The position numbers were made by a program, and so were the translations under genes. Of a DNA stretch of 64,000 bases, positions 37,183 to 63,071 are shown piece after piece. The DNA lies in assembly GCF_002854065.1 (NCBI RefSeq), contig NZ_CP024147.1; one strand, given 5' to 3'. Every line of letters begins with the position of its first letter. The stretch's first letter is position 1. The DNA comes from Escherichia coli. Lineage in GTDB: Bacteria; Pseudomonadota; Gammaproteobacteria; Enterobacterales; Enterobacteriaceae. Below the pieces are notes generated by a model. That model was given only the letters and a program-made list of their open reading frames with translations, ran no database searches and was not told the origin of the DNA.

Positions 37183-37389
37183 TCAGTCAACCACCAGGGA
37201 ATAATCCTTCGAATTCTTATCGTGCTTCACCAACGCTGCCTCAATTGCCCTGAATGCTTCCAGAGACACCTGATGTTCTATACATGCAATTACAACATCC
37301 GGGTAACTCATAGAAATGGTGCTATTAAGCATATTTTTTACACGAATCAGATCCAACGAGAGTTCATCAGCAGATTGTTCTTTATTCAT
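37183..37389 (-). CDS. small uncharacterized prophage protein
   Basis: 68-aa ORF in the AT-rich moron region divergent from ydfO. Confidence 0.5.
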
Positions 37390-37689
37390 TTTGTCGCTCC
37401 ATGCGTTTGCTCGTCATCTAGCGGTTAAAATATTACTTCAAATCTTTCTGCATAAAAGAGGAAAAGTATGAAAGTTTGAGTACATCGACCTTACATACAT
37501 CTGTCGGTTGCATATCCCTCCTGGATGCCAGCAAGGCTCAACTTTGTTACGCAATCAACACTATTCATTAAAAACAGGCTTAATATTTGACATAAATCAT
37601 CAACAAAACACAAAGAGGTCAGACCAGATTGAAACAATAAACACGATAATGCAAACTACGCGCCATCGTATCACATGGAAGGTTAACCA

Positions 37690-38100
37690 ATGGCTCAGGC
37701 TGCCATTTTTAAAGAAATATTCGATCAAGTGCGTAAAGATTTAAACTGTGAATTATTTTATTCTGAGCTAAAACGTCACAATGTCTCACTTTATATTTAC
37801 TATTTAGCCACAGATAATATTCACATTGTGTTAGAAAACGACAACATAGTGTTAGTAAAAGGACTCAAAAAGGTTGTAAATGTTAAATTCTCCAGAAACA
37901 AACATCTTATAGAGACCTCCTATAATAAGTTGAAATCAAAAGAAATCACATTTCAACAATACAGGGATAATCTTGCTAAAGCAGGAGTTTTCCGATGGGT
38001 TACAAATATCCAGGAACACCAAAGATATTACTATGCCTTTGATAACTCATTACTATTTACTGAAAGCATCCAGAAAACTACACAGATCTTACCACGCTAA
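37690..38100 (+). CDS. ydfO: uncharacterized prophage protein (DUF1398, YdfO-like)
   Basis: 136-aa ORF. Confidence 0.7.
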
Positions 38101-38251
38101 ACCATAACGTCCGGCTTCTCTCACTCCTGAGCCGGACTGCATTGGTTTAATAAAAACCATCAACAATTGTGATTTAGATATTCGGAACCATTCAAATATA
38201 ACAAAACCCCGTAAAAACGAGGTTTATGGATAAATTTTATTATTGAATACA

Positions 38252-38425
38252 TCAGATTAAATTAATCTTGACATCATAGCTTTCAAGACCCGTCATTTTT
38301 TCCCGTGCGGTAAACTGAATACTGGTAACTTCTTTCCCGGTCTTTTTCTTAAGTTCAATAATTTTTTTTGTTATATATTCAGAAATATCTGCTTCTGCTT
38401 TTGTTTTTAAGTCTTCAATATTCAT
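38252..38425 (-). CDS. gnsB: 57-aa GnsA/GnsB-family small protein
   Basis: Minus-strand translation MNIEDLKTKAEADISEYITKKIIELKKKTGKEVTSIQFTAREKMTGLESYDVKINLI; too short for the ORF track. Confidence 0.75.
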   Translation of the reverse strand: MNIEDLKTKAEADISEYITKKIIELKKKTGKEVTSIQFTAREKMTGLESYDVKINLI

Positions 38426-38596
38426 CATTTCCTCTTTTAGTCTGTTATGACTTTCCAGTTACACAGTAAATCGATTATATGGTGCAAACGTGTAAAAGAT
38501 AAGATGAAAAATCGCAATAATCAACATACGATAGTCTAAATTTTACACAAACAGACAAAGAGAATTTTCCTGAATTATCAATGCAATAGCATCAAA

Positions 38597-38752
38597 TCAA
38601 CTCAAGAGCCTTATTGCTGCTTCCAGAATTTCTTCTGAAGTAACATGTCGATCCGCGGCTACATAAATGACTTTATGATCTCCGGTCAGAGATGGAAACC
38701 CTGCGGCCATTACAGTAAGGTGTGTTTTTTCGCCATTTGGATATTCACGCAT
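38597..38752 (-). CDS. ynfN: small prophage protein (YnfN-like); start uncertain
   Basis: 51 aa from MREYPNGEK...; the same frame stays open upstream to 38869. Confidence 0.6.
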   Translation of the reverse strand: MREYPNGEKTHLTVMAAGFPSLTGDHKVIYVAADRHVTSEEILEAAIRLLS

Positions 38753-38870
38753 GATGGTGTTAACTCCAGTCATCGCTGGCACTACCACTGCTGGTTCAGA
38801 GTTAAAAAAAACTATGATTTTTTTCATGATGTTACCGTAGTATGTGAGTATCCATCGAATAGACACCAAG

Positions 38871-38905
38871 CAAAAAAGCTCCCGAAGGAGCCTTCATTTT
38901 CACTT
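38871..38905. terminator. bidirectional-looking hairpin (GCTCC-CGAA-GGAGC) flanked by A-run and T-run, ~200 bp downstream of cspI
   Basis: AAAAAAGCTCCCGAAGGAGCCTTCATTTTCACTTTTTT. Confidence 0.55.
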
Positions 38906-39098
38906 TTTTAAATCCAACGACAGACGGCTGGCATTTAAGTATTGTGAAATATTATCAAATGTAATCATCATTGATTTACAAAAGATACATTTTGCCCCGA
39001 AAGGATTCATGTCAGAAACATCAAAAGATGATGTTCTATACTGGGAACCATGACAACACGGGCATCTAAAGTGAATATGGTTTGTAATATTGTCTACC

Positions 39099-39311
39099 TC
39101 AAAGCGCCACTACATGAACAGCGGCAGGACCTTTAGGTCCGTTCTCAATACCAAATTCAACTTCCTGATTCTCAGTTAATGTTTTGAAATCGTTGCTCTG
39201 AATTGCTGAGAAATGGACAAACACATCTTTGCTGCCATCTTTCGGCGTGATGAAACCAAAACCTTTTTCAGGGTTAAACCATTTCACTAAACCAGTCATT
39301 TTGTTAGACAT
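39099..39311 (-). CDS. cspI: CspA-family cold shock protein
   Basis: 70 aa, [23 protein letters not shown]... with RNP1/RNP2 motifs. Confidence 0.9.
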
Positions 39312-39673
39312 AATTATTACCTTTTGAAGAAATTAGCCCTTGGGCAGAATGGTCCGAAAAAAAATATCAGAGAGAAAAACCAACAAGGAAATCCCAAGAG
39401 GTACAAATAATAAAATTATAACAATGACTGCTTCAGATAAATTTGTAACAAACCAGAACACCATTAACGCATGATTAACCACCCATAGCAAGGATTACTT
39501 TTGTAAAGAAAAACACAGCAATGAAAGAATAGCTTTATTTATTAATAAAACGTGTCATTCTGATTAAGACCTTTTATCTTACCCTTAAGATTTCAGGAAT
39601 TTTGGCTCATGGAAGAGTCCTTTTTATTTAAATTTTACATTCCGCGATGTAAATGTTCCGATTTAATATTACC

Positions 39674-40698
<1,025 letters not shown>

Positions 40699-40702
<4 letters not shown>

Positions 40703-41010
40703 AGATATTTATGATGAGGACGCTCGTGCTTATTGGCAGGATTTTCAATCTTAAAGGAGTACTGATGCTGCAGATAAGACTCAACTTTTTCTGACAATTT
40801 TTCTGCTACTTCCAGGAAGACTTGCCGGACGCTCCTTCTGGCTGCTGCCTCATAAAACTCCAGCGCAGCTCCTTCAACACGGTCCATGGCGACATCCAGG
40901 TCAAAAATTTCACCGTCAAAGCGTTCTTTGTCCTGTAAGGCTACAGTTACCGTAACTTTGTTCTCAAAATTACGGACTCCTTTCACAACCAGTTCATAGT
41001 CTTGAGTCAT
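40699..41010 (-). CDS. ydfR: uncharacterized protein encoded between holin and endolysin
   Basis: 103-aa ORF overlapping the endolysin start by 4 nt (ATGA). Confidence 0.7.
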
Positions 41011-41014
41011 TGGA

Positions 41015-41230
41015 TTACTCTCCTCTCGCAGCCTTACGCCTGTCTTCTTTAATCTTGAAATAAAGATTTGTCAGATACGTCAGCAGGCCAAAAACCAGGC
41101 TACCCAGCACACCGATTGCAGCCCACTGTGACGGAGTTACTTTATCGAGTAACTGCAATGCCCAGAAACCAGCATTACCCGCCGATGTGCCATAGGCAAC
41201 ACCTGTTGTTAACTTATCCATTGATTTCAT
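41015..41230 (-). CDS. essQ: S21-type holin (pinholin)
   Basis: 71 aa from [28 protein letters not shown]... with two TM segments; track ORF extends upstream to 41305. Confidence 0.85.
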
Positions 41231-41449
41231 ATCCTCACCCCGATGTACACGGATGGTGCAATATGTTTGAAAAGATCGGAGTCTACGGGGTAGTTTTGAC
41301 AGCACACGCTGTTCTCAACGGCGCTAAAGAAACATACACATTAAAAATGTGAGTAATTATTTTGAAAGAAAGTCATATATAAAATAATAATACGAGAAAT
41401 GTTTTCATATTTAGTGTACTGTATACGGCCATTTATACAGGAAAAGCCT

Positions 41450-41620
41450 ATGTCAGAACGTAAAGACTCAAAATCACGCCGTAATTATCTCGTTAAATGT
41501 TCCTGCCCAAACTGCACCCAAGAGTCAGAACACAGTTTTTCAAGAGTACAAAAAGGTGCCCTTTTGATCTGCCCTCATTGCAACAAAGTATTCCAGACAA
41601 ATCTTAAAGCTGCAGCCTGA
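41450..41620 (+). CDS. 56-aa zinc-ribbon small protein (CPNC-x17-CPHC)
   Basis: ATG at 41450 with AGGAAAAG upstream; two CxxC pairs. Confidence 0.6.
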   Translation: MSERKDSKSRRNYLVKCSCPNCTQESEHSFSRVQKGALLICPHCNKVFQTNLKAAA

Positions 41621-41677
41621 TTGATTTTATTAGTAACAAGTATTTTTTATATTTTAATAATATATTTAAAGTAGATA

Positions 41678-41703
41678 ATAAAAAACCCGCCTGAGCGGGT
41701 TTG
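41678..41703 (-). terminator. minus-strand intrinsic terminator ~280 nt downstream of cspB
   Basis: AACCCGC-CTGA-GCGGGTT with a U-run on the minus strand. Confidence 0.6.
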
Positions 41704-41983
41704 AGATTGTGGTGCTTTTTGTGGGAGTCATCCACTTACGCACTTTGTTTTGCCATGCCAGCAGTTAGCTTCTGCTGTAAAACTATTCATGCCGCAAACC
41801 TGCACTTCACCACAATGGTTAGCATACTTTTCCTGATTAAGATTTTGCCAAATATGCTGGCCATTGTTTCATGTATTGGACCTCCTTAATTTTTATTAAA
41901 GAAATCCAATATTCACTACTCTGTCCGTATCTCTACTCAGGCATCAGCCTTCTTCGTTATCGTATACAGACGAGCGATGAATT

Positions 41984-42199
41984 TTAATCAGTAATGATGA
42001 CATTTGCTGCTGCAGGACCTTTAGCACCACTCTCTATAGAGAAGGTAACCTTTTGACCTTCAAATAAGGTTCGATAATTATCATTCTGAATCGCAGAAAA
42101 ATGCACAAACACATCTTTACTACCATCAACAGGAGAAATAAAGCCGAAACCTTTATCAGCGTTAAACCATTTTACTAAACCAGTCATTTTATTTGACAT
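41984..42199 (-). CDS. cspB: CspA-family cold shock protein
   Basis: 71 aa, [23 protein letters not shown]... Confidence 0.9.
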
Positions 42200-42490
42200 T
42201 CTACATTCCTTAACTTGAGCCTTTCGGCATAAATGGTTTGCATAACAGAAACGACTTCGTACTTAATTGGAGAGACTCAAAGAAGGAATAAGTGAATAAC
42301 ACCTGAAATGAGAACTGCTTTAGTAAACTACTTCGTATATCGTCTGTTCTTCAAACCGACGCAGTCATTAACTCATAGTTGAACATATGAAGCAATGTTT
42401 ATTTTAGACATCCAGCCACCTTCAACCCTATCAAAAAAGTAGTTTTCTCCAGGAACGTGTGTATGGTGCACCAGGTTATCAGTATTAAGG

Positions 42491-42724
42491 AGTTTTTCTG
42501 TCCCCTAAAATGACAGGAATTGTCAAAAACTTTGACTACAAAAGCAGCAAAGGTCTTATATCCCCATCCGATGGCGTATCGATGCCCAGCTTCAGGTTTC
42601 AGCTCTCAATCTTCGAGATGCAGAAGAAATTACCACAGGATTACGCGTGGAATTTTGCCGGATAAATGGTTCGCGTGGACCTTCAACTCCCAATGTTTAT
42701 CCTGGGATGAGATTCAATATCTCT
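42491..42724 (+). pseudogene. cspF: cspF-like cold-shock gene, apparently frameshifted
   Basis: Frame A (ATG 42491) encodes [22 protein letters not shown] then leaves the cold-shock-domain pattern; a second frame from ~42556 encodes ...[20 protein letters not shown] (domain C-terminus) and runs on without the expected stop. Confidence 0.5.
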
Positions 42725-42744
42725 ATTGCCCCATTTAAAGCACA

Positions 42745-42777
42745 AAAACCCGCTTATCAGCGGGTTTTCTACTTTTT
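42745..42777 (+). terminator. intrinsic terminator after the cspF-like gene
   Basis: AAACCCGC-TTATCA-GCGGGTTT followed by a T-rich run. Confidence 0.65.
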
Positions 42778-42874
42778 TCTAAACGTCGGATACACAAAGC
42801 CCATCGTTGAGAAAATCTTATCCATGTTTTTTGAAAAATGCAAACATCATGTCGCCATCTTCAGCAAAAATCAT

Positions 42875-44516
<1,642 letters not shown>

Positions 44517-44852
44517 GTTTTTCAACCTGAAGTGTCAGCGAGAGTAAAAAATTATGGTGACCATTTTACCGTTGACTCAATAAGGCAGATGTGGGACGCA
44601 GCGATAAAACGTGCCGGACTCCGCCATTGAAAATCATATCAGTCGAGACATACTTATGCCTGCTGGTCGCTGACAGCTGGTGCTAACCCGGCATTTATAG
44701 CAAACCAGATGGGCCATGCAGATGCGCAAATGGTATTTCAGGTATACGGAAAATGGATGTCTGAAAACAATAATGCACAGGTAGCTTTGTTAAATACACA
44801 GTTAAGCGAGTTTGCCCCAACCATGCCCCATAACGAAGCAATGAAAAATTAA
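44517..44852 (+). pseudogene. intQ: tyrosine integrase C-terminal remnant with an in-frame stop
   Basis: Frame reads ...WDAAIKRAGLRH-stop(TGA 44628-44630)-KSYQSRHTYACWSLTAGANPAFIANQMGHADAQMVFQVYGKWM...; begins at the IS right end, ends 38 bp before attR. Confidence 0.65.
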
Positions 44853-47818: not shown

Positions 47819-47952
47819 CTTTGTCTCTTATTGACATCATGTATAGTTATAGGGCGACATAATATCATCAATATAAACACCCTCCTGGTACGTTTTGCGT
47901 CCGCAGTGGATGGTGTAGAATCACCTTTAATCATTCATACAGGGAATGAATT

Positions 47953-48294
47953 ATGAAAATCACTCTCAGCAAACGAATCGGCCTGCTCGCTTTTCTGCTG
48001 CCTTGCGCACTGGCATTGAGCACAACTGTTCATGCCGAAACTAACAAACTGGTGATTGAGTCTGGCGACAGTGCACAAAGCCGCCAGCACGCCGCTATGG
48101 AAAAAGAGCAATGGAATGACACGCGCAATCTGCGCCAGAAAGTGAATAAACGCACTGAAAAAGAGTGGGATAAAGCCGACGCCGCTTTTGATAACCGCGA
48201 TAAATGTGAGCAAAGCGCCAACATCAATGCCTACTGGGAGCCAAATACTTTGCGCTGCCTGGACCGTCGAACTGGCCGCGTTATTACCCCCTAA
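47953..48294 (+). CDS. ynfB: secreted DUF1283 protein
   Basis: 113-aa ORF with signal peptide. Confidence 0.85.
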
Positions 48295-48328
48295 CCTGTT
48301 ATTGATTTAAGGAATGTAAGGACACGTT

Positions 48329-48889
48329 ATGCCAAGCGCCCACAGTGTTAAGCTACGCCCGCTGGAGCGTGAAGATTTACGCTATGTACATCAACTCGAC
48401 AATAACGCCAGTGTGATGCGTTACTGGTTTGAGGAACCCTACGAAGCCTTTGTTGAACTCTCTGATCTGTATGATAAGCATATTCACGATCAGAGCGAAC
48501 GACGCTTTGTGGTGGAATGTGACGGCGAAAAAGCCGGTCTGGTGGAGTTGGTGGAAATTAACCATGTACATCGCCGCGCAGAATTTCAGATAATTATCTC
48601 CCCGGAGTATCAGGGGAAAGGTCTGGCAACCCGTGCCGCCAAATTAGCAATGGACTATGGCTTCACCGTTCTCAATCTCTATAAGCTGTATCTGATCGTC
48701 GATAAAGAGAATGAAAAAGCGATTCACATTTACCGCAAGCTTGGCTTTACGGTTGAAGGTGAATTGATGCATGAGTTCTTTATTAATGGTCAATATCGTA
48801 ATGCTATTCGCATGTGTATATTCCAGCATCAGTATCTGGCAGAGCACAAAACACCGGGTCAGACTCTCCTGAAGCCGACCGCACAATAG
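48329..48889 (+). CDS. speG: spermidine N1-acetyltransferase (GNAT)
   Basis: 186-aa ORF with GNAT fold motifs. Confidence 0.9.
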
Positions 48890-49174
48890 CATTAATAATA
48901 ATCGATCGTATTTTTGATGGTGTAAACCCGTTCGACGGCGGGTTTTACTCCTTCATCAACAATGATCAGCTGACAGTCCACTGGATTGGCGTGACTGTCA
49001 TATTCACAGCTCTGTTTTACATTACCAACCCGTTGATTGTTCAGTAAAGTAACCGCTGTGTAATCTAATTTTTTGATCGGATCCGTTGATGGCGTGGCGC
49101 TGACAGATAATGTTTTGTCGTTACTTTTCGTGGTTTTACCCAGCGGATACCCCTGATCATCATTGGATTTGCCC

Positions 49175-50080
49175 CTATATTTCCAGACATCTGTTATCAC
49201 TTAACCCATTACAAGCCCGCTGCCGCAGATATTCCCGTGGCGAGCGATAACCCAGCGCACTATGCGGATGCCATTCGTTATAATGCTCGAACGCCTCTGC
49301 AAGGTTCTTTGCTGCCGTTAACCCGTCTGGTTTGGGCATGATACTGATGTAGTCACGCTTTATCGTTTTCACGAAGCTCTCTGCTATTCCGTTACTCTCC
49401 GGACTCCGCACCGCCGTGTTCTTCGGTTCAAGTCCCAACATCCGGGCGAACTGGCGTGTTTCATTAGCCCGGTAGCATGAACCATTATCCGTCAGCCACT
49501 CCACTGGAGACGACGGAAGATCGTTGCCGAAGCGGCGTTCCACCGCTCCCAGCATGACGTCCTGTACTGTTTCACTGTTGAAGCCGCCGGTAGTGACCGC
49601 CCAGTGCAGTGCCTCACGATCACAGCAGTCCAGCGCGAACGTGACACGCAGTCTCTCTCCGTTATCACAGCAGAACTCGAACCCGTCAGAGCACCATCGC
49701 TGATTGCTTTCTTTCACGGCCACTCTGCCTGTATGTGCCCGTTTCGATGGCGGTACAGCAGGTTTTCGCTCAAGCAACAGCGCATTCTGGCGCATGATCC
49801 GGTAAACACGTTTGGCATTGATCGCAGGCATACCATCAAGTTCTGCCTGTCTGCGAAGCAGCGCCCATACCCGACGATAACCATACGTGGGCAGCTCTCC
49901 GATAACATGGTGTATACGGAGAAGCACATCCGTATCATCAGTGTGACGACTGCGGCGGCCATCCATCCAGTCATCGGTTCGTCTGAGAATGACGTGCAAC
50001 TGCGCACGCGACACCCGGAGACAACGGCTGACTAAGCTTACTCCCCATCCCCGGGCAATAAGGGCGCGTGCGCTATCCAC
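49175..50080 (-). CDS. insD: IS2 transposase OrfB (InsD-type)
   Basis: 301-aa DDE transposase ORF overlapping insC. Confidence 0.9.
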
Positions 50081-50403
50081 TTTTTTGCCCGTCCATATTC
50101 AACGGCTTCTTTGAGGAGTTCATTTTCCATCGTTTTCTTGCCGAGCAGGCGCTGGAGTTCTTTAATCTGCTTCATGGCGGCAGCAAGTTCAGAGGCAGGA
50201 ACAACCTGTTCTCCGGCGGCGACAGCAGTAAGACTTCCTTCCTGGTATTGCTTACGCCAGAGAAATAACTGGCTGGCTGCTACACCATGTTGCCGGGCAA
50301 CGAGGGAGACCGTCATCCCCGGTTCAAAGCTCTGCTGAACAATTGCGATCTTTTCCTGTGTGGTACGCCGTCTGCGTTTCTCCGGCCCTAAGACATCAAT
50401 CAT
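50038..50403 (-). CDS. insC: IS2 OrfA (InsC-type)
   Basis: [56 protein letters not shown]... Confidence 0.9.
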
Positions 50404-51045
50404 CTGTTCTCCAATGACTAGTCTAAAAACTAGTATTAAGACTATCACTTATTTAAGTGATATTGGTTGTCTGGAGATTCAGGGGGCCAGTCTAATCATA
50501 GCGATATTCCATCTGCATCTGTTTGCTGCTGGCTTTAATCACGAAGCCATTATCATCGGTTTCCCAACTCACCCCGGCAGAAGGTAATTCTGCTAGCTGG
50601 CATTTTCCCTGTAAACGTACTCTCTTCTCCAGCGTCTCGGCATCACGGTAATAATTGGCGTCCAGTACCAGAGCGACCACGGTATTATTTTCCAGATCCA
50701 GTAATTCGAGTGAATCAAAACAGCCTTCTTCCGACAAAGTCCCCGAAACACGTTTCGTCACTTCACCTTGCTCATCCATTAATGTCTGAGTGAAATCTTT
50801 TACCGGACCACGCAGCGGATCAAAATCGAATTCATTAGAGAAACTGGCCATCTCAGGAGTAAATGAAAGTGTTACCTCTGTGCGGTCACATCCTGTGAGT
50901 AATATCGCGAGTAAGCATGGCAGTAATTTGTATTTCACATCAGTCACCAGAGAGTAGAGATGATTCTCAATCATAGTAGCAAATACAGTACTTTACACGT
51001 TAAATGCTATGCTTAAAGAAGTTATCTTCGCGTAAGGAGCTTATG

Positions 51046-51351
51046 ATGAAACTCTCAACCTGCTGTGCCGCGCTTCTGCTCGCCCTCGCCTCACCCGCGG
51101 TACTCGCCGCGCCGGGATCCTGTGAGTGCATACAGAGCGATATATCACAGCGCATTATCAATAATGGCGTACCCGAAAGCAGCTTCACGTTAAGTATTGC
51201 ACCCAATGACCAGGTTGATCAGCCTGATTCCCAGGTCGTCGGGCATTGTGCTAATGATACGCATAAAATTCTCTACACCCGCACCACCAGCGGTAACGTC
51301 TCTGCTCCCGCGCAGTCTACCCAGGATGGCGCGCCTGCCGAACTGCAGTAA
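51046..51351 (+). CDS. ynfD: secreted DUF1161 protein
   Basis: ~101 aa from the ATG at 51046, signal peptide MKLSTCCAALLLALASPAVLA. Confidence 0.8.
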   Translation: MKLSTCCAALLLALASPAVLAAPGSCECIQSDISQRIINNGVPESSFTLSIAPNDQVDQPDSQVVGHCANDTHKILYTRTTSGNVSAPAQSTQDGAPAELQ

Positions 51352-51435
51352 TACATTATCGACTGAACGCCGGATACGACGCATCCGGCGATTTGAACAT
51401 ATAACATAACCCACCTTATTACTCATACCCTTCTA

Positions 51436-51449
51436 TTGATATGGATTAA
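51436..51449 (+). promoter_or_regulatory. FNR-like site (TTGAT-ATGG-ATTAA) ~100 bp upstream of ynfE
   Basis: One mismatch to TTGAT-N4-ATCAA; fits an anaerobic respiratory operon. Confidence 0.4.
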
Positions 51450-51548
51450 TAATTCTTAACCCAAAATGGGTAGACCCCCTCTATTGTTAGCGCGCTAAAT
51501 ATTCAATATATAAACTTTTATATAACGATAAAGAACAGGGAGTGAGTT

Positions 51549-53975
51549 ATGTCCAAAAATGAACAAATGGTGGGCATCAGCCGCAGAACACTCGTTAAAT
51601 CTACCGCGATAGGTTCTCTGGCGCTGGCTGCAGGCGGTTTTTCTTTACCGTTTACCCTGCACAGTGCAGCAGCAGCGGTACAACAGGCCCGCGAAAAAGT
51701 GGTCTGGGGTGCCTGTTCTGTCAACTGTGGTAGCCGCTGTGCACTTCGTCTACATGTTAAAGATAATGAAGTGACCTGGGTGGAAACTGACAATACCGGC
51801 AGCGATGAGTACGGCAACCATCAGGTACGCGCCTGTTTGCGCGGTCGCTCCATCCGCCGGCGTATTAATCATCCCGATCGCTTGAATTACCCAATGAAAC
51901 GCGTGGGCAAACGCGGCGAAGGCAAATTCGAACGGATTAGCTGGGATGAAGCCCTGGATACTATCGCCAGTAGCCTGAAGAAAACCGTCGAACAATATGG
52001 CAATGAGGCTGTATATATTCAGTACTCTTCGGGGATCGTTGGCGGCAATATGACCCGCTCTTCGCCATCAGCCTCGGCGGTCAAACGCCTGATGAACTGC
52101 TACGGCGGTTCACTCAACCAGTATGGCTCCTACAGCACTGCGCAAATTTCCTGTGCCATGCCCTACACCTACGGCAGTAATGATGGCAACAGCACCACGG
52201 ATATTGAAAACAGCAAGCTGGTCGTGATGTTTGGTAACAACCCGGCAGAAACCCGCATGAGCGGCGGTGGCATCACTTATCTTCTTGAAAAAGCCCGCGA
52301 AAAATCGAACGCAAAAATGATTGTTATCGATCCGCGATATACCGATACGGCTGCCGGTCGTGAAGACGAATGGCTTCCTATTCGCCCGGGCACCGATGCC
52401 GCGCTGGTTGCGGGTATTGCCTGGGTATTGATTAACGAAAATCTCGTTGATCAACCTTTTCTCGATAAATACTGCGTCGGCTATGACGAAAAAACCTTAC
52501 CCGCAGATGCACCCAAAAATGGTCACTATAAAGCCTATATTCTTGGTGAAGGTGACGATAAAACAGCGAAAACGCCGCAGTGGGCTTCGCAAATTACCGG
52601 TATCCCGGTGGACCGTATCATCAAACTGGCGCGTGAAATTGGCACAGCAAAACCCGCTTATATCTGCCAGGGCTGGGGGCCGCAACGCCAGGCAAACGGC
52701 GAGCTGACCGCACGCGCTATTGCTATGTTGCCTATTCTGACGGGCAATGTCGGCATCAGCGGCGGAAATAGTGGCGCGCGTGAATCGACCTATACCATTA
52801 CCATAGAGCGCCTGCCGGTGCTGGATAATCCGGTCAAAACGTCAATTTCCTGCTTCAGCTGGACAGATGCTATCGATCATGGCCCACAAATGACGGCAAT
52901 CCGCGACGGTGTCCGGGGCAAAGATAAACTGGATGTGCCCATTAAGTTCATCTGGAACTACGCGGGAAATACCCTGGTTAATCAGCATTCTGACATCAAC
53001 AAAACGCATGAAATTCTGCAGGACGAATCGAAATGCGAAATGATTGTGGTCATCGAAAACTTTATGACCTCATCGGCAAAATATGCCGACATTCTGCTGC
53101 CAGACCTGATGACCGTTGAGCAGGAAGATATTATTCCTAACGACTACGCCGGTAACATGGGATATCTCATTTTCCTCCAGCCAGTCACCAGCGAAAAATT
53201 CGAACGTAAACCGATTTACTGGATCCTGAGTGAGGTCGCGAAACGTCTTGGACCTGACGTCTATCAAAAGTTCACTGAAGGTCGCACGCAGGAACAATGG
53301 TTACAACATCTGTACGCCAAAATGCTTGCCAAAGATCCGGCGTTACCGTCTTACGACGAACTGAAAAAAATGGGTATCTATAAGCGTAAAGATCCCAATG
53401 GTCATTTTGTCGCCTACAAAGCATTTCGTGACGACCCCGAGGCAAATCCACTTAAAACACCTTCCGGTAAGATTGAAATTTATTCCAGCAAGCTGGCGGA
53501 AATTGCCCGTACCTGGGAACTGGAAAAAGATGAAGTGATAAGCCCACTGCCAGTTTATGCCTCAACCTTTGAAGGCTGGGACTCCCCTGAACGTAGTACC
53601 TTTCCACTGCAACTGTTTGGTTTCCATTACAAATCCCGTACTCACTCGACCTACGGCAATATTGATCTCCTGAAGGCTGCCTGCCGTCAGGAGGTGTGGA
53701 TCAACCCTATAGATGCGCAGAAACGTGGGATTGCCAACGGCGATATGGTGCGGGTGTTTAACCATCGTGGCGAAGTTCGGCTACCAGCCAAAGTGACACC
53801 ACGTATTCTCCCTGGAGTTAGCGCTATGGGCCAGGGAGCCTGGCACGAGGCCAATATGTCTGGCGATAAAATCGACCATGGAGGCTGTGTGAATACGCTA
53901 ACCACTCTGCGCCCTTCACCACTGGCGAAGGGAAACCCGCAGCATACGAATCTGGTCGAGATCGAAAAAATATAA
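51549..53975 (+). CDS. ynfE: molybdopterin oxidoreductase catalytic subunit (DmsA paralogue; putative selenate reductase), Tat-exported
   Basis: 808-aa ORF; twin-arginine signal (SRRTLVKS); CSVNCGSRC FeS motif. Confidence 0.95.
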   Translation: MSKNEQMVGISRRTLVKSTAIGSLALAAGGFSLPFTLHSAAAAVQQAREKVVWGACSVNCGSRCALRLHVKDNEVTWVETDNTGSDEYGNHQVRACLRGRSIRRRINHPDRLNYPMKRVGKRGEGKFERISWDEALDTIASSLKKTVEQYGNEAVYIQYSSGIVGGNMTRSSPSASAVKRLMNCYGGSLNQYGSYSTAQISCAMPYTYGSNDGNSTTDIENSKLVVMFGNNPAETRMSGGGITYLLEKAREKSNAKMIVIDPRYTDTAAGREDEWLPIRPGTDAALVAGIAWVLINENLVDQPFLDKYCVGYDEKTLPADAPKNGHYKAYILGEGDDKTAKTPQWASQITGIPVDRIIKLAREIGTAKPAYICQGWGPQRQANGELTARAIAMLPILTGNVGISGGNSGARESTYTITIERLPVLDNPVKTSISCFSWTDAIDHGPQMTAIRDGVRGKDKLDVPIKFIWNYAGNTLVNQHSDINKTHEILQDESKCEMIVVIENFMTSSAKYADILLPDLMTVEQEDIIPNDYAGNMGYLIFLQPVTSEKFERKPIYWILSEVAKRLGPDVYQKFTEGRTQEQWLQHLYAKMLAKDPALPSYDELKKMGIYKRKDPNGHFVAYKAFRDDPEANPLKTPSGKIEIYSSKLAEIARTWELEKDEVISPLPVYASTFEGWDSPERSTFPLQLFGFHYKSRTHSTYGNIDLLKAACRQEVWINPIDAQKRGIANGDMVRVFNHRGEVRLPAKVTPRILPGVSAMGQGAWHEANMSGDKIDHGGCVNTLTTLRPSPLAKGNPQHTNLVEIEKI

Positions 53976-54032
53976 CCCACTACAACCATAAATTCTGGCA
54001 TGACATTTTGTTTGAAAAGCAATAAGTGAGTA

Positions 54033-56459
54033 ATGATGAAAATCCATACCACAGAGGCGCTCATGAAGGCTGAAATCAGCCGTAGAAGTCTGATGAAAAC
54101 CTCCGCACTTGGCAGTCTTGCGCTGGCAAGCAGTGCTTTCACTCTGCCATTTTCCCAAATGGTCCGGGCGGCAGAGGCTCCGGTAGAAGAGAAAGCGGTC
54201 TGGAGTTCCTGTACCGTTAACTGCGGGAGCCGCTGTCTGTTACGTTTGCATGTGAAAGATGACACCGTGTACTGGGTGGAGTCTGATACGACAGGTGACG
54301 ACGTCTACGGTAATCATCAGGTTCGAGCGTGTTTACGCGGGCGCTCTATCCGCCGACGGATGAATCATCCTGATAGGTTGAAATATCCCATGAAGCGCGT
54401 CGGCAAGCGCGGTGAAGGTAAATTTGAACGGATAAGTTGGGACGAAGCCCTGGATACCATCAGTGATAATCTTCGGCGGATCCTAAAAGATTACGGCAAT
54501 GAGGCTGTACATGTCCTGTACGGAACAGGTGTAGATGGCGGAAACATCACCAACTCAAACGTCCCGTACCGTCTGATGAACTCTTGCGGTGGTTTTCTCA
54601 GTCGCTATGGCAGCTACAGTACCGCACAGATCAGTGCCGCAATGAGTTATATGTTCGGTGCCAATGATGGCAACAGCCCGGATGATATCGCCAATACGAA
54701 ACTGGTCGTTATGTTCGGAAATAACCCGGCAGAAACGCGGATGAGCGGTGGTGGTGTCACTTACTACGTCGAGCAAGCCCGCGAACGTTCAAACGCACGC
54801 ATGATCGTCATCGATCCACGTTATAACGACACAGCTGCCGGGCGTGAAGATGAATGGCTGCCCATTCGCCCTGGCACCGATGGCGCACTGGCCTGTGCGA
54901 TTGCCTGGGTACTGATTACTGAAAACATGGTCGATCAGCCATTTCTCGACAAATATTGTGTTGGTTACGATGAAAAAACGCTGCCCGCCAACGCACCACG
55001 TAACGCGCATTATAAAGCCTATATTCTGGGCGAAGGGCCTGACGGCATAGCTAAAACGCCGGAATGGGCAGCAAAAATCACCTGCATCCCGGCAGAAAAA
55101 ATTATCCAGTTGGCACGAGAGATCGGTTCAGCAAAACCTGCTTATATTTGTCAGGGTTGGGGGCCACAACGACATTCCAACGGCGAGCAAACATCCCGCG
55201 CTATTGCCATGCTTTCCGTTCTCATCGGTAACGTCGGCATAAACGGCGGCAACTCAGGCGTACGCGAAGGTAGCTGGGATCTGGGGGTAGAATGGTTCCC
55301 GATGCTCGAGAATCCTGTTAAAACGCAGATTTCCGTCTTTACATGGACAGATGCCATCGATCATGGTACGGAAATGACCGCGACCCGTGATGGTGTTCGT
55401 GGAAAAGAAAAACTGGATGTCCCCATCAAGTTTTTATGGTGCTACGCCAGTAACACATTGATCAATCAACATGGCGACATCAATCACACCCATGAGGTGC
55501 TTCAGGATGACAGCAAGTGCGAGATGATTGTTGGCATTGACCACTTCATGACGGCCTCGGCTAAGTATTGCGATATCCTGTTGCCCGACCTGATGCCAAC
55601 AGAGCAAGAAGACCTTATCTCTCATGAATCTGCAGGGAATATGGGCTATGTGATCCTCGCCCAACCCGCAACCTCAGCAAAATTTGAACGCAAACCCATC
55701 TACTGGATGCTGAGTGAAGTCGCCAAACGCTTAGGACCGGACGTTTATCAAACCTTTACTGAAGGTCGCAGTCAGCATGAATGGATCAAATATCTCCATG
55801 CGAAAACGAAGGAACGTAACCCTGAGATGCCCGACTACGAGGAGATGAAAACGACCGGGATCTTTAAGAAAAAATGCCCGGAAGAACACTACGTCGCTTT
55901 CCGCGCATTCCGTGAAGATCCACAGGCAAACCCGTTGAAAACACCTTCGGGGAAAATCGAAATTTATTCTGAACGACTGGCGAAGATTGCAGATACCTGG
56001 GAATTGAAAAAAGATGAAGTTATTCATCCCCTTCCAGCTTATACGCCAGGTTTTGATGGCTGGGACGATCCCCTGCGGAAAACCTATCCACTGCAGTTAA
56101 CGGGCTTCCACTACAAAGCGCGTACCCACTCCAGCTACGGCAATATTGATGTGTTACAGCAGGCCTGCCCACAAGAGGTGTGGATCAACCCCATTGATGC
56201 TCAGGCACGCGGTATCCGTCATGGCGATACCGTGCGGGTATTTAACAATAATGGAGAAATGCTGATTGCCGCAAAAGTGACTCCGCGTATTCTGCCTGGC
56301 GTTACCGCCATCGGGCAAGGTGCGTGGCTTAAAGCGGATATGTTTGGTGACCGGGTCGATCACGGCGGCAGTATTAATATTCTGACCTCTCACCGCCCTT
56401 CACCGCTGGCAAAGGGAAACCCGTCGCACAGCAATCTTGTCCAGATCGAAAAGGTTTAA
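54033..56459 (+). CDS. ynfF: molybdopterin oxidoreductase catalytic subunit, tandem paralogue of ynfE, Tat-exported
   Basis: 808-codon ORF (start may be the second ATG at 54036); twin-arginine signal (SRRSLMKT); CTVNCGSRC. Confidence 0.95.
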   Translation: MMKIHTTEALMKAEISRRSLMKTSALGSLALASSAFTLPFSQMVRAAEAPVEEKAVWSSCTVNCGSRCLLRLHVKDDTVYWVESDTTGDDVYGNHQVRACLRGRSIRRRMNHPDRLKYPMKRVGKRGEGKFERISWDEALDTISDNLRRILKDYGNEAVHVLYGTGVDGGNITNSNVPYRLMNSCGGFLSRYGSYSTAQISAAMSYMFGANDGNSPDDIANTKLVVMFGNNPAETRMSGGGVTYYVEQARERSNARMIVIDPRYNDTAAGREDEWLPIRPGTDGALACAIAWVLITENMVDQPFLDKYCVGYDEKTLPANAPRNAHYKAYILGEGPDGIAKTPEWAAKITCIPAEKIIQLAREIGSAKPAYICQGWGPQRHSNGEQTSRAIAMLSVLIGNVGINGGNSGVREGSWDLGVEWFPMLENPVKTQISVFTWTDAIDHGTEMTATRDGVRGKEKLDVPIKFLWCYASNTLINQHGDINHTHEVLQDDSKCEMIVGIDHFMTASAKYCDILLPDLMPTEQEDLISHESAGNMGYVILAQPATSAKFERKPIYWMLSEVAKRLGPDVYQTFTEGRSQHEWIKYLHAKTKERNPEMPDYEEMKTTGIFKKKCPEEHYVAFRAFREDPQANPLKTPSGKIEIYSERLAKIADTWELKKDEVIHPLPAYTPGFDGWDDPLRKTYPLQLTGFHYKARTHSSYGNIDVLQQACPQEVWINPIDAQARGIRHGDTVRVFNNNGEMLIAAKVTPRILPGVTAIGQGAWLKADMFGDRVDHGGSINILTSHRPSPLAKGNPSHSNLVQIEKV

Positions 56460-56469
56460 GGAGTAGCCC

Positions 56470-57087
56470 ATGACCACACAATATGGATTTTTTATCGATT
56501 CCAGCCGCTGTACTGGCTGTAAAACCTGCGAACTGGCGTGCAAAGATTTTAAAGATCTTGGCCCGGAAGTCAGTTTCCGCCGTATTTATGAATATGCTGG
56601 CGGCGACTGGCAGGAAGATAATGGCGTCTGGCACCAGAACGTGTTCGCTTATTATCTCTCCATCTCCTGTAACCATTGCGATGACCCCGCATGTACAAAA
56701 GTCTGCCCCAGCGGCGCAATGCATAAGCGTGAAGATGGCTTTGTGGTGGTTGATGAAGATGTTTGTATCGGCTGCCGCTACTGCCACATGGCTTGTCCGT
56801 ACGGCGCGCCACAGTACAATGCTGAAAAAGGGCACATGACGAAGTGCGATGGTTGTTATTCGCGCGTCGCCGAGGGGAAACAACCCATATGTGTCGAATC
56901 CTGCCCGCTGCGTGCACTTGAGTTCGGTCCAATTGAAGAGCTGCGCCAGAAGCACGGCACTCTGGCTGCCGTCGCGCCACTGCCGCGCGCGCATTTCACA
57001 AAACCCAATATCGTTATCAAACCTAACGCCAACAGCCGCCCGACCGGCGATACCACTGGTTATCTGGCTAATCCGGAGGAAGTTTAA
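56470..57087 (+). CDS. ynfG: 4Fe-4S ferredoxin-type electron-transfer subunit (DmsB-like)
   Basis: 205-aa ORF with four Cys clusters. Confidence 0.95.
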   Translation: MTTQYGFFIDSSRCTGCKTCELACKDFKDLGPEVSFRRIYEYAGGDWQEDNGVWHQNVFAYYLSISCNHCDDPACTKVCPSGAMHKREDGFVVVDEDVCIGCRYCHMACPYGAPQYNAEKGHMTKCDGCYSRVAEGKQPICVESCPLRALEFGPIEELRQKHGTLAAVAPLPRAHFTKPNIVIKPNANSRPTGDTTGYLANPEEV

Positions 57088-57088
57088 A

Positions 57089-57943
57089 ATGGGAAATGGA
57101 TGGCATGAATGGCCACTGGTTATCTTTACCGTATTGGGTCAATGCATAGTAGGCGCGCTGATTGTTAGCGGAATTGGCTGGTTCGCCGCCAAAAATGACG
57201 CAGACCGTCAGCACATTGTTCGTGGCATGTTTTTCCTCTGGCTGTTGATGGGCATCGGGTTTATTGCCTCTGTCATGCACCTGGGATCGCCACTGCGGGC
57301 GTTTAACTCGCTGAATCGAATCGGAGCTTCTGGTCTGAGTAACGAGATTGCTGCCGGTTCCATATTTTTTGCCGTTGGCGGACTATGGTGGCTGGTGGCG
57401 GTCATCGGTAAAATGCCGCAAGCGTTGGGGAAACTCTGGTTACTTGTCAGCATGGCGCTCGGCGTCATTTTCGTCTGGATGATGACCTGCGTGTATCAAA
57501 TCGACACTGTGCCCACCTGGCATAACGGTTACACTACGCTGGCTTTCTTCCTGACGGTATTGTTGAGTGGTCCAATACTTGCTGCCGCAATTCTGCGGGC
57601 AGCCCGCGTTACATTTAATACCACACCATTTGCCATCATTAGCGTTCTAGCGCTGATCGCTTGTGCCGGGGTGATTGTGCTGCAAGGTTTGTCTCTGTCG
57701 TCTATTCACTCATCCGTGCAACAAGCCAGCGCACTAGTACCAGATTACGCCTCCTTACAGGTCTGGCGTGTGGTATTGTTATGCGCAGGTCTAGGATGCT
57801 GGCTTTGTCCGCTCATACGTCGCCGTGAACCTCACGTTGCCGGACTTATTCTGGGGTTAATCCTCATTCTTGGCGGTGAGATGATCGGGCGTGTGCTCTT
57901 TTATGGCCTGCACATGACGGTAGGAATGGCTATTGCAGGTTAA
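57089..57943 (+). CDS. ynfH: membrane anchor subunit (DmsC-like)
   Basis: ATG at 57089 (MGNGWHEWPLVIFTVLG...), ~284 aa, 8 TM helices; track ORF is an upstream extension. Confidence 0.9.
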   Translation: MGNGWHEWPLVIFTVLGQCIVGALIVSGIGWFAAKNDADRQHIVRGMFFLWLLMGIGFIASVMHLGSPLRAFNSLNRIGASGLSNEIAAGSIFFAVGGLWWLVAVIGKMPQALGKLWLLVSMALGVIFVWMMTCVYQIDTVPTWHNGYTTLAFFLTVLLSGPILAAAILRAARVTFNTTPFAIISVLALIACAGVIVLQGLSLSSIHSSVQQASALVPDYASLQVWRVVLLCAGLGCWLCPLIRRREPHVAGLILGLILILGGEMIGRVLFYGLHMTVGMAIAG

Positions 57944-57985
57944 CAAATTGGTGCGGGGCAACCCGCACATTTCAGGATGTTAGGA

Positions 57986-58600
57986 ATGACCCATTTTTCA
58001 CAGCAAGATAATTTTTCTGTCGCGGCGCGCGTGTTGGGCGCGCTGTTTTATTACGCTCCAGAGAGTGCTGAAGCCGCACCTCTGGTTGCGGTACTCACCA
58101 GTGACGGCTGGGAAACTCAGTGGCCTCTACCAGAAGCGTCATTAGCGCCGCTGGTGACGGCTTTTCAGACACAGTGTGAAGAGACTCACGCCCAGGCCTG
58201 GCAGCGTTTGTTTGTCGGCCCGTGGGCACTGCCGTCTCCGCCGTGGGGGTCGGTCTGGCTGGATCGCGAATCTGTGCTGTTTGGCGATTCAACATTGGCA
58301 CTTCGTCAGTGGATGCGCGAGAAAGGCATTCAGTTTGAAATGAAGCAAAACGAACCGGAAGATCATTTTGGTTCACTGCTGTTGATGGCTGCGTGGTTGG
58401 CGGAGAATGGTCGCCAGACAGAATGCGAAGAATTGCTGGCATGGCACCTTTTTCCGTGGTCAACACGTTTTCTTGACGTTTTTATCGAAAAAGCAGAACA
58501 CCCTTTCTACCGCGCACTGGGTGAACTGGCTCGCTTAACGCTGGCGCAATGGCAATCACAACTGTTAATTCCTGTCGCGGTTAAACCGCTGTTTCGATAG
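57986..58600 (+). CDS. dmsD: Tat proofreading chaperone (TorD/DmsD family)
   Basis: ~204 aa from the ATG at 57986. Confidence 0.9.
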   Translation: MTHFSQQDNFSVAARVLGALFYYAPESAEAAPLVAVLTSDGWETQWPLPEASLAPLVTAFQTQCEETHAQAWQRLFVGPWALPSPPWGSVWLDRESVLFGDSTLALRQWMREKGIQFEMKQNEPEDHFGSLLLMAAWLAENGRQTECEELLAWHLFPWSTRFLDVFIEKAEHPFYRALGELARLTLAQWQSQLLIPVAVKPLFR

Positions 58601-58613
58601 GATCACCGTAATA

Positions 58614-58650
58614 TTGCCGGATGGTGACGATTACGCGCAATCCGGCAATA
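58614..58650. repeat. REP-like inverted repeat/hairpin (ATTGCCGGAT ... ATCCGGCAAT) after dmsD
   Basis: 10-bp perfect inverted arms with a 17-nt loop. Confidence 0.5.
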
Positions 58651-58793
58651 ATAGGTTACAGTGTCACGTTTTTTATCTCTTAAAGCACGCACTGCTTTTG
58701 CGGCTGGCCTCTTTTGCCGCAAAATAGTCGCCCGTGTTTCATTGCCCATTTCTGCTCATGCATCATCTACACATCTATCCGGATCTGCGCACT

Positions 58794-60050
58794 ATGTTCC
58801 GCCGTCTGCTTATCGAAACAGTCGTCGGTATTCTCGCGGCCTTTGCCGTTGCCGGGTTTCGTCATGCGATGCTGCTACTGGAGTGGTTGTTCCTCAATAA
58901 TGACTCGGGCAGTCTGGTCAATGCAGCGACAAATCTTTCCCCCTGGCGACGGCTGCTAACTCCGGCGCTCGGCGGACTGGCGGCGGGTTTGTTGTTGATG
59001 GGCTGGCAGAAATTTACCCAGCAACGCCCTCATGCGCCGACCGATTACATGGAAGCGTTGCAAACCGATGGTCAGTTTGATTACGCAGCAAGCCTGGTTA
59101 AATCGCTTGCCTCTCTGCTGGTAGTAACCAGCGGCAGCGCAATTGGTCGCGAAGGTGCGATGATTCTTTTAGCTGCCCTTGCCGCCTCCTGTTTTGCCCA
59201 ACGTTTTACGCCACGCCAGGAGTGGAAATTATGGATCGCCTGTGGGGCCGCGGCGGGAATGGCTGCGGCCTATCGTGCCCCGCTTGCTGGCAGTTTATTT
59301 ATAGCCGAAGTGCTGTTTGGCACTATGATGTTGGCCTCTCTCGGCCCGGTGATTATTTCCGCCGTCGTGGCATTGCTGGTTAGCAATCTGATTAATCATA
59401 GCGACGCGTTACTCTACAGCGTACAACTCTCAGTGACGGTTCAGGCTCGTGACTATGCGCTGATTATCAGTACAGGTGTGCTGGCAGGTCGGTGCGGACC
59501 ACTGTTGTTAACGTTAATGAACGCCTGTCATCGTGGATTTGTGAGTCTCAAACTTGCGCCGCCCTGGCAACTGGCACTAGGCGGGTTGATCGTGGGTCTG
59601 CTTTCCCTGTTCACACCTGCAGTGTGGGGCAACGGCTATAGCACCGTACAATCCTTTTTAACCGCCCCGCCACTGTTAATGATCATTGCCGGGATCTTCC
59701 TTTGTAAACTGTGTGCCGTGCTGGCGAGTAGCGGTTCCGGCGCACCCGGTGGTGTCTTTACACCGACGCTATTTATCGGTCTTGCCATTGGCATGTTGTA
59801 TGGTCGTAGCCTGGGATTATGGTTCCCTGATGGCGAAGAAATTACGCTTTTACTCGGATTGACCGGGATGGCGACACTGTTGGCGGCAACCACGCACGCG
59901 CCGATTATGTCGACGTTGATGATATGTGAAATGACCGGGGAGTATCAGCTACTCCCCGGTTTATTGATTGCCTGCGTAATTGCGTCGGTAATCTCGCGGA
60001 CGTTACACCGTGACTCTATCTACCGCCAGCACACTGCGCAGCATAGCTAA
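58794..60050 (+). CDS. clcB: ClC-family voltage-gated chloride channel
   Basis: ATG at 58794 gives ~418 aa (track ORF starts at GTG 58734); GSAIGREGA selectivity-filter-like motif. Confidence 0.9.
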
Positions 60051-60698
60051 GCGGATGTATTGCCCCAGTTCACGCTGTTCGGCGCGCGGCAGATAAGGCA
60101 GTTCACCAATGAGCGGTGCCGGAAGTTTTTTACCGAGCACATCAATGATTTCCGCATAATGCGCCAGTCCTGGGTTGATTCGGTTAGCCACCCAGCCAAT
60201 GAGCGGCAGCCCGTCGTTGGCAATCGCCTGAGCTGTTAGCAGTGCATGGTTAATGCAACCTTCCTGAATACCGACAACCATCAACACCGGCAGTTGTTCC
60301 TGCACCACCCATTCAGAGAGTGGACGCAAATCATTCATCAGACTACGCCAGCCGCCAGTCCCTTCTACCACGACATGATCGACTTTTTCGGTCAGGTTTG
60401 CCAGGCCGTTTGAAATGAGGGTGTAATTGATTGGGCAACTGTGCGCCACGCTACTTTCTTCTTCGCTTAACGCGATAGGATTAACTGCTTCATAAGGCAG
60501 TTCGATGGTTGAAACACTCTGCAACACCAGGGCATCTTTATTACGCAGCCCTTCGGGTGTCTCTTTGCTCCCCTTCGCTACGGGTTTATATCCCGCAACC
60601 GTTTTTCCCTGGGAGGCTAACGCTTGTAGCAATGCGCGGGAAACCACCGTTTTCCCTACAGAAGTGTCTGTACCGGTAATAAAGAAACGCTTCAGCAT
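60003..60698 (-). CDS. ynfK: dethiobiotin-synthetase paralogue (BioD-like ATPase)
   Basis: P-loop GTDTSVGKT; ~231 aa; 3' end overlaps the clcB 3' end by 48 bp on the opposite strand. Confidence 0.85.
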
Positions 60699-60822
60699 CA
60701 CTAACTCCACCGTTATGCTTCACAAATATAAACCAGGAAAATAATTAACCTTGAAAGTCTAAGTTATGCTTTCCTGGCCCAAATTGAGATAGCGCAAATT
60801 TTGGTAGAACAGTTAAAAAATG

Positions 60823-62043
60823 TTAACCCTGCAACAGACGAATCAACAAAGAACCGTTATACATCGCGTCTTTTACCAGCGCAGCCCCTGCCATCGTGCC
60901 CTGGTTAGAAAACTGAGTACTCTCAACGCTAATGTGCTGACTATACGCAGGAAGGGCCTGCTGACGGATGCTATCTGAGATGACCGGGAAGAGGATATCT
61001 GCCGCTTTACTTAACGGTGAGCCAATCAGTATTTTTTGTGGGTTAAATAAATTCACCATGATGGCAAGAATGCGCCCTACATGCGCGCCCACCCCGGTAA
61101 TGATGTCTTTTGCCAGCAGATCGCCGCGCAATGCCGCCTGACACAATGAGTCCACGGTTAACGGTTGCCCATGTAACATCGAGCTCATGGATTGATTGAG
61201 ACGCAGCTGTGCCAGCTCAAGAATACTGTCCACACTGGCGATGGTTTCGAGGCAGCCGTGGTTCCCGCAATAACAGCGTTTACCATATGGGTCTACCTGT
61301 GTGTGACCTATTTCCACGAGGCTACTGCTGCCTGCGTGTAGCAGATGACCATCGGTAATGACGCCCGCCCCCACGTTGTGATCGATAACCACCTGGATCA
61401 CATCGCGCGCCCCGCGTGAGGCACCAAACAAGGCCTCTGCCATCGTCCATGCGCTGATATCATGCTGAATATAAACCGGAACGCCGGTATGCTGCTCCAG
61501 AGCCTCGCCGAGCGGCATCTCTTTTACATCCTCGTAGAACGGCATGCGATGTACAATGCCATTTTCCGTATCAATAATTCCCGGCAGGGTTATGGCAATC
61601 GAAGTTAGACGCTCAAGTTTTTTCTGGTGGCGGATAAAAAACTGATCGATATGGGAAATGATACGATCCAGCAATGGCGAGTCATCTTTTAACGCCAGTT
61701 CCTGCGACTCTTCCACCACCAGTTTGCTGCTCAGATCGCGCAGAGCAAGGAAAATCTCCCCGCGACTAATGCGCAGAGAAAGATAGTGCCAGGCTTCAGT
61801 TTCAACCACCAGCCCCACCGCCGGACGGCCACGGTTCCCCGCTTCTTTGATTTCCAGCTCTTGTACCAAGTGTGCTTCGAGCATCTCACGGACAATTTTA
61901 GTGATACTGGCAGGAGCCAGCTGCGCCAGACGGGAAAGATCGATACGCGAGACTGGACCAAGCTGATCAATCAGGCGATAAACCGCGCCCGCGTTGGTCT
62001 GCTTTATTTGATCAATGTGCCCAGGCTGGTTTTCAGCAACCAC
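60823..62043 (-). CDS. mlc: ROK-family global regulator of sugar uptake (Mlc/DgsA)
   Basis: 406-aa ORF with N-terminal HTH and ROK sugar-kinase-like domain. Confidence 0.9.
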   Translation of the reverse strand: MVAENQPGHIDQIKQTNAGAVYRLIDQLGPVSRIDLSRLAQLAPASITKIVREMLEAHLVQELEIKEAGNRGRPAVGLVVETEAWHYLSLRISRGEIFLALRDLSSKLVVEESQELALKDDSPLLDRIISHIDQFFIRHQKKLERLTSIAITLPGIIDTENGIVHRMPFYEDVKEMPLGEALEQHTGVPVYIQHDISAWTMAEALFGASRGARDVIQVVIDHNVGAGVITDGHLLHAGSSSLVEIGHTQVDPYGKRCYCGNHGCLETIASVDSILELAQLRLNQSMSSMLHGQPLTVDSLCQAALRGDLLAKDIITGVGAHVGRILAIMVNLFNPQKILIGSPLSKAADILFPVISDSIRQQALPAYSQHISVESTQFSNQGTMAGAALVKDAMYNGSLLIRLLQG

Positions 62044-62177
62044 CGCATACTCCCTATATTTTCGCGCTCCGAAATAATCTGTAGGCTATGGTGAAGCACT
62101 TCAATACGTGTCGTCAAATTTTTACTTAGGCATGTGATTAACAGCACATTTTTCGGGCTTTTTCGCTGAAATTTCCC

Positions 62178-63071
62178 TCACCTGAGAGCATTCAGCAGAT
62201 GAATACGAAAGTTACGCGCAGCTGGACTTTGTTCATGATGTTTCGGCCAGACCAACCACATTTCAGAAACCGCATCCTCTTCAGCAATCGGCACCCAGCG
62301 CATTTCGTTGAGCTGAACACGTTTAAATGACGCAGGCAAAATTGAAACACCCAGACCGGCGGAAACCAGACCGATGATGGTCATTGCCTCGCCCACCTCC
62401 TGAGTGATGACGGGCGTCAAATGGTAACGTCGCATCAGCCCGAGAATATCGTCATACAGCCCTGTCCCGACGTGCGGATCAAAAAAGACAAAGGGTTCTT
62501 TCGCCAGTTCAGCCAGTTTTACACTCGAATTATTTGCCAGGGGATGATCGTGCGGGATCATCGCCATAAGCGGTTCATGGACGATGACTGCGTGTTCAAG
62601 CGTCTCCGGTAACGCTGTGTTACGCAGCAATCCCATATCCAGCGTTCCTTCAATGAGCGGAGCGATTTGCTCGCGAGTGTTCATTTCGCGGGTTTGTAAA
62701 TGGACATCGGGATAATCTCGGCGAAACAGCGATAACGTATCGGACACCGCCCGAATAAAAGGAGCCGACGAAGTAAAACCAATGCGCAACTCCCCCGCTT
62801 CACCCTGATGCAGTCTTTCAGCGCGAGCGGCAGCGTCATCCACCATAGACAGGATTTGCCGACTATCTGCAAGAAACTGTTTTCCTGCTGCCGTCAGCAA
62901 TACACTGCGATTGGTTCGTGCCAGCAGTCGGGCACCAATTTGTTGCTCCAGCGCCTGAATCTGCTGACTTAGCGGCGGTTGCGAAATATTCAGGCGGGCA
63001 GCGGCGCGCCCGAAATGCAGCTCTTCCGCAACAGCAACAAAGTAACGCAGATGACGAAGTTCAATATTCAT
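62178..63071 (-). CDS. ynfL: LysR-family transcriptional regulator
   Basis: 297-aa ORF with LysR HTH (MNIELRHLRYFVAVAEELHFGRAAARLNISQPPLSQQIQALE). Confidence 0.85.
   Translation of the reverse strand: MNIELRHLRYFVAVAEELHFGRAAARLNISQPPLSQQIQALEQQIGARLLARTNRSVLLTAAGKQFLADSRQILSMVDDAAARAERLHQGEAGELRIGFTSSAPFIRAVSDTLSLFRRDYPDVHLQTREMNTREQIAPLIEGTLDMGLLRNTALPETLEHAVIVHEPLMAMIPHDHPLANNSSVKLAELAKEPFVFFDPHVGTGLYDDILGLMRRYHLTPVITQEVGEAMTIIGLVSAGLGVSILPASFKRVQLNEMRWVPIAEEDAVSEMWLVWPKHHEQSPAARNFRIHLLNALR

Follow-up and report, generated by a model that had tools for sequence, protein, structure and literature searches.

The window (the whole stretch of DNA analyzed here, 64,000 nucleotides of Escherichia coli contig NZ_CP024147.1, assembly GCF_002854065.1, numbered from its first letter) carries the conserved chromosomal lipoprotein gene ynfC between speG and ynfD, in the same gene order as in three annotated genomes, and ynfC is split there by a complete copy of the insertion sequence IS2. 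The features of the locus are collected in Table 1, along with two IS2-like insertions in ynfC from other E. coli genomes, which are discussed further below. IS2 has been described since the 1970s. The copy in the window lies in minus-strand orientation, with its left end (IRL) at the high-coordinate side and its right end (IRR) at the low-coordinate side; read on the plus strand, it starts TGGATTTGCCCC (the outer end of IRR) and finishes GGGGGCCAGTCTA (the outer end of IRL). On the same strand the two junctions with ynfC read ...CCCCTGATCATCAT/TGGATTTGCCCCTATATTTCC... at 49163/49164 and ...CAGGGGGCCAGTCTA/ATCATAGCGATATT... at 50494/50495.

Table 1. Features of the split ynfC locus and of two further IS2-like insertions in ynfC
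Feature	Coordinates	Strand or orientation	Basis or remark
Complete IS2 element	49164-50494	-	1331 bp; transposase genes on the minus strand
IRL, 42-bp left terminal inverted repeat, TAGACTGGCCCCCTGAATCTCCAGACAACCAATATCACTTAA	50453-50494	-	Same as the IRL string printed in PMC3219604
IRR, 41-bp right terminal inverted repeat	49164-49204	-	CA-3' end on the transposase-sense strand
orfA (insC), 121 aa, IS2 repressor/OrfA	50038-50403	-	NF006928 and identity to K-12 InsC1
orfB (insD), 301 aa, catalytic part of the OrfAB transposase	49175-50080	-	NF006918 and identity to K-12 InsD1
A6G slippery window AAAAAAG, programmed -1 frameshift to OrfAB	50080-50086	-	In the orfA/orfB overlap
ynfC 5' fragment, codons 1-148	50492-50938	-	NF002798 profile positions 1-148 of 236
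ynfC 3' fragment, codons 148/149-236 and stop	48892-49163	-	NF002798 profile positions 147-236 of 236
Target-site duplication copy 1, ATCAT	49159-49163		Perfect 5-bp repeat
Target-site duplication copy 2, ATCAT	50495-50499		Single copy at the empty site of strain 100416
IS2-like element in ynfC, TW10590	L001 3528-4858	Same as window IS2	About codon 4; target-site duplication AGTAA
IS2-like element in ynfC, TUM9812	L002 3254-4584	Same as window IS2	Middle of the N-terminal part; target-site duplication GTAAT

A megablast search of 5,426 complete E. coli genomes returned many 1331-bp copies 100% identical to this element, and these are annotated as 'IS3-like element IS2 family transposase'. IS2A of K-12 MG1655 (insC1/insD1, in yaiX) shares with it the length, IRL, IRR, the A6G window and the InsC and InsD proteins, and also has a 5-bp duplication (ATTAC); the two differ in site (ynfC codon 148/149 here, rather than yaiX) and in one base out of 1331 (1330 identical), a synonymous change at IS position 606. 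The terminal repeats are imperfect: IRL ends in TA, the IRR end sequence is ...GGGGCAAATCCA (last bases AATCCA), and a gapped alignment of IRL with IRR has 31 identical columns out of 42, with one gap. The 42-bp IRL has been described together with the position of PIRL, a weak promoter just inside IRL that reads inward and is repressed by OrfA (PMC3299598). Other IS2 copies or large repeats were sought within the window, and none was found.

The two reading frames of the element are intact over their full lengths, each profile being covered from end to end: orfA scores 276 bits against the NCBIfam 'IS2 repressor TnpA' model (cut-off 229, positions 1-121 of 121), and orfB scores 728 bits against the NCBIfam 'IS2 transposase TnpB' model (cut-off 597, positions 1-301 of 301). 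The frame of orfB is -1 relative to orfA (a frame offset of 2, equal to -1), and the slippery window, a motif described for IS2 (PMC3219604), lies at IS coordinate 409 with zero-frame codons GCA AAA AAG. A slip at this point fuses 108 codons of orfA with 301 of orfB; the resulting 409 residues agree with the way in which the 46-kDa transposase is numbered (PMC3219604). Every testable hallmark of IS2 was thus found in the window (length and identity, terminal repeats, overlapping open reading frames with A6G, protein models and a 5-bp duplication), and the original prediction, which had set the element at exactly these coordinates with both canonical ends and with insC and insD intact, was correct in all of these points. 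The element has every sequence feature required for activity, which suggests that it is active and may still be mobile. Its identity to the IS2 studied experimentally suggests, in addition, that it would transpose by way of a figure-of-eight and a minicircle, with the junction promoter Pjunc (PMC3299598).

The closest relative of the window is E. coli strain 100416, isolated from human stool in the Gambia, which is approximately 99.9% identical over about 58 kb (99.90% against window 1-28053, and 99.92-99.95% against 27829-44029, 47847-49163 and 50495-64000). This strain has the empty site: its sequence reads ...CCCCTGATCATCATAGCGATATTCC..., with one ATCAT, and its alignments to the two flanks of the element overlap by exactly 5 bp; the flanks carry one mismatch over 1317 bp and two over 3000 bp. 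The repeat in the window is exactly 5 bp long (the sixth base does not match), and a 5-bp match would arise by chance, with the ends of the element fixed, about once in 1024 cases. Comparison with this empty site, where only one copy is present, settles that ATCAT is a true duplication of the target. The perfect duplication, the absence of extra mutations in the gene fragments, the identity of the element to other IS2 copies and its absence from the nearest relative together argue that the insertion is a simple and, in evolutionary terms, probably recent event; both the perfect repeat on each side and a simple, probably recent transposition had been proposed beforehand, and both hold.

When the element and one ATCAT (49164-50499) are removed, the two fragments form a single 711-bp, 236-codon open reading frame on the minus strand, as the proposal that they are parts of one gene demands. 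The rejoined gene is identical in 711 of 711 positions to the intact annotated ynfC of three complete genome records (strain 100416, strain CUWW06 and NZ_OZ197100.1), and it scores 419 bits against NF002798, the YnfC lipoprotein equivalog (cut-off 263, positions 1-236 of 236 covered). Every testable characteristic of the YnfC family (UPF0257, PF06788, NF002798) was found in it, and a sequence search of the PDB for YnfC returned no solved relative. The 5' fragment keeps the hydrophobic signal sequence, the lipobox and the GTG from which RefSeq annotates the gene: the N-terminus reads VKYKLLPCLLAILLTGC followed by D, with L-T-G-C at residues 14-17 and Asp at the +2 position, a lipidation site predicted from the sequence. 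Under the classical +2 rule, Asp after the lipobox cysteine predicts retention in the inner membrane.

Directly after codon 148, the opening bases of IRL (TAGACT...) provide the TAG that closes this 5' fragment. The 3' fragment lies within a 102-codon open reading frame (48892-49200) whose sole in-frame start is a GTG inside IRR; no good ribosome-binding site was evident at this GTG when judged by eye, and the product of the frame, if any, would be without a signal peptide. The gene is therefore divided as anticipated, into an N-terminal part with signal peptide and lipobox and a C-terminal part, and the expectation that no full-length product is made is upheld. Full-length YnfC cannot be made from the split reading frame, from which we infer that its function is lost; the truncated N-terminal lipoprotein can still be encoded and may keep a residual or altered activity. 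The Keio deletion of ynfC is viable and turns up only in lists from screens: a ciprofloxacin persister screen places it with the less tolerant mutants (PMC13131330), and a screen of uropathogenic E. coli names ynfC as a candidate fitness gene (PMC3855560). Because no function has been assigned to YnfC and its deletion is known from such lists only, no specific phenotype can be predicted for the allele.

A search with the IRR junction and its 100 bp to either side found it in one piece in none of the 5,426 complete E. coli genomes; two apparent full-coverage matches, in TW10590 and TUM9812, proved to come from other insertions in this gene. At least one draft assembly, GCA_035821435.1, encodes the exact truncated product; its contig reaches 77 bp into IRL and matches the window at 99.97% identity, and two further contigs are similar to this one. 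Another candidate, a Logan contig from SRR7191679 with the exact 160-aa product of the truncated reading frame, was rejected as not being the same insertion, its sequence going on ...TATGATGA, as in intact ynfC. This contig is 98.1% identical to window 50495-53144 and ends 2 nt beyond the IS2 insertion site. Its ending there is most likely a coincidence, because the look-up selects for a protein of exactly this length; the possible alternative is a repeat that was inserted 2 bp from the site.

Three other explanations of the locus have to be weighed against an ordinary insertion, and two of them concern whether the junction is genuine and what it does to its neighbors. IS2 is present in multiple copies in most E. 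coli genomes (a median of 4 places per genome), and repeats commonly cause misjoins, so a copy might have been misplaced into ynfC during repeat resolution; a misjoin would not, however, create the 5-bp duplication found at both junctions, and the same ynfC-IRL junction exists in GCA_035821435.1, an independent short-read draft assembly. For the latter reason we regard the allele as real, and an assembly artefact as extremely improbable. The other explanation is an adaptive activation of genes, in which an outward or hybrid IS2 promoter alters the expression of ynfD/ynfE, or of the ynfC 3' fragment together with antisense transcription of speG. IS2 is documented to make fusion promoters from an outward -35 element in IRR and a flanking -10, for example at ampC and acrEF (PMC9330008), and speG and ynfC are a convergent pair with overlapping transcripts (an 'excludon') in E. 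coli (PMC12288877). A lax, home-made scan did return candidates (TGGAAA-18-GATGAT across the junction of IRR and its flank, reading toward speG, and two sites on the IRL side directed outward to ynfD), but every one of them matches at only 8 of 12 positions, below the threshold of the standard tool and at the level of chance. The standard consensus scan found no outward promoter at threshold, and promoter-like sites were fewer than in shuffled sequence (3 versus a mean of 5.2). Moreover, IRR, the end known to donate the -35 element, faces away from ynfD/ynfE, toward the ynfC 3' fragment and then the 3' end of speG; ynfD has IRL on its side, and the promoter of IRL reads inward, away from that gene. 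Some 550 bp, including the whole native ynfC-ynfD intergenic region, lie untouched between the element and ynfD, and the stretch between 50495 and the start of ynfD (about 51043) matches strain 100416, the nearest single-base substitution being at about 51127, inside ynfD. We therefore consider activation very unlikely, and the suggestion in the original prediction that outward-reading IS2 sequence could affect the ynfD/ynfE side was not supported: these observations point to little or no effect there. If any neighbor were affected, speG would be a more plausible candidate than ynfD/ynfE. The insertion also has no downstream operon partner that could suffer polarity, because ynfC and speG are convergent, and ynfC and ynfD divergent.

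The remaining explanation is that ynfC is a preferred target of IS3-family elements, or is selected for loss, such that its inactivation is recurrent and convergent rather than random. Two complete genomes, TW10590 (NZ_CP035850.1) and TUM9812 (NZ_CP128926.1), carry 1331-bp IS2-like elements in ynfC, each with a 5-bp duplication and in the orientation seen in the window. Because their sites within the gene differ and the IS variant is another one (approximately 95.7% identical to the copy in the window), we count them as independent events. In TW10590, the RefSeq annotation nevertheless retains a 714-bp 'ynfC' that starts within the end of the element. A further disruption has been reported in the atypical enteropathogenic ST302 strain F2_18C, where IS1203 interrupts ynfC (PMC6985150); that case resembles ours in that an IS3-family element breaks the gene, but the element belongs to the IS1203/IS629 group and the strain is different. 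Against a preference stands the fact that ynfC is unbroken, in one piece, in 5379 of the 5426 complete genomes. IS2 has approximately 25,000 recorded places across these genomes, and by a rough estimate one insertion in a 711-bp gene of a 5-Mb genome is expected for every several thousand independent insertions; the two or three insertions in ynfC are not clearly an excess over this estimate. The targets ATCAT, AGTAA and GTAAT have only their A+T richness in common, and three insertions would share one orientation by chance in 1 case in 4. A few hits are roughly what chance would give, and we do not claim that ynfC is enriched for IS insertions; a preferred or selected target is in our judgment very unlikely. 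It is very unlikely, likewise, that a recurrent IS3-family knock-out of ynfC represents convergent pathoadaptive gene loss of which this allele is one instance. If that were true, losing YnfC, or changing the overlap of the speG and ynfC transcripts, would be advantageous in some host-associated lineages.

Elsewhere in the window, other mobile and degraded sequences were observed. A second, apparently intact IS3-family element lies at 43254-44521 (ISEc31-like, judging from how the corresponding part of strain 100416 is annotated), with imperfect terminal inverted repeats of 31 nt, a 115-aa OrfA and a 348-aa OrfB-type reading frame; it is situated where a Qin-like cryptic prophage borders on rspB. 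The same element is broken in strain 100416 by a group II intron (ltrA), and the adjacent rspB-rspA-ynfA are missing there. The Qin-like remnant (27829-44029, 99.94% identical to strain 100416) contains ydfK, pinQ, tfaQ, tail genes, cspI/cspB/cspF and the lysis genes essD/rrrQ, and it holds several truncated phage genes in the annotation of strain 100416. At 19126-20337, ydeE is an open frame of 403 codons, for which the annotation of strain 100416 has an internal stop, and at 8202-9461 a diguanylate cyclase gene (seen here only as a 419-codon open reading frame) is frameshifted in that strain; the pseudogene content of the two near-identical genomes thus differs.

Taken as a whole, the locus is almost certainly a standard IS2 insertion that splits ynfC in an E. 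coli-type genome close to strain 100416, and nothing in the sequence contradicts this reading. IS2, a member of the IS3 family (IS2 group), would have entered ynfC at codon 148/149 through its usual copy-out/paste-in mechanism, oriented like the gene, duplicating 5 bp of the target (ATCAT) and leaving a loss-of-function allele. Translation from the ynfC start would halt at the stop codon that the element supplies, giving a prolipoprotein fragment of at most 148 residues, of which 132 would remain after cleavage at Cys17, and the last 88 codons of the gene would be left with no start signal of their own. This is an ordinary IS2 insertion whose biology is already known, and its significance is small outside annotation. 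For this strain, the allele marks ynfC as a pseudogene, the ynfC-IS2 junction provides a lineage marker, and the element itself represents an apparently active copy of IS2.
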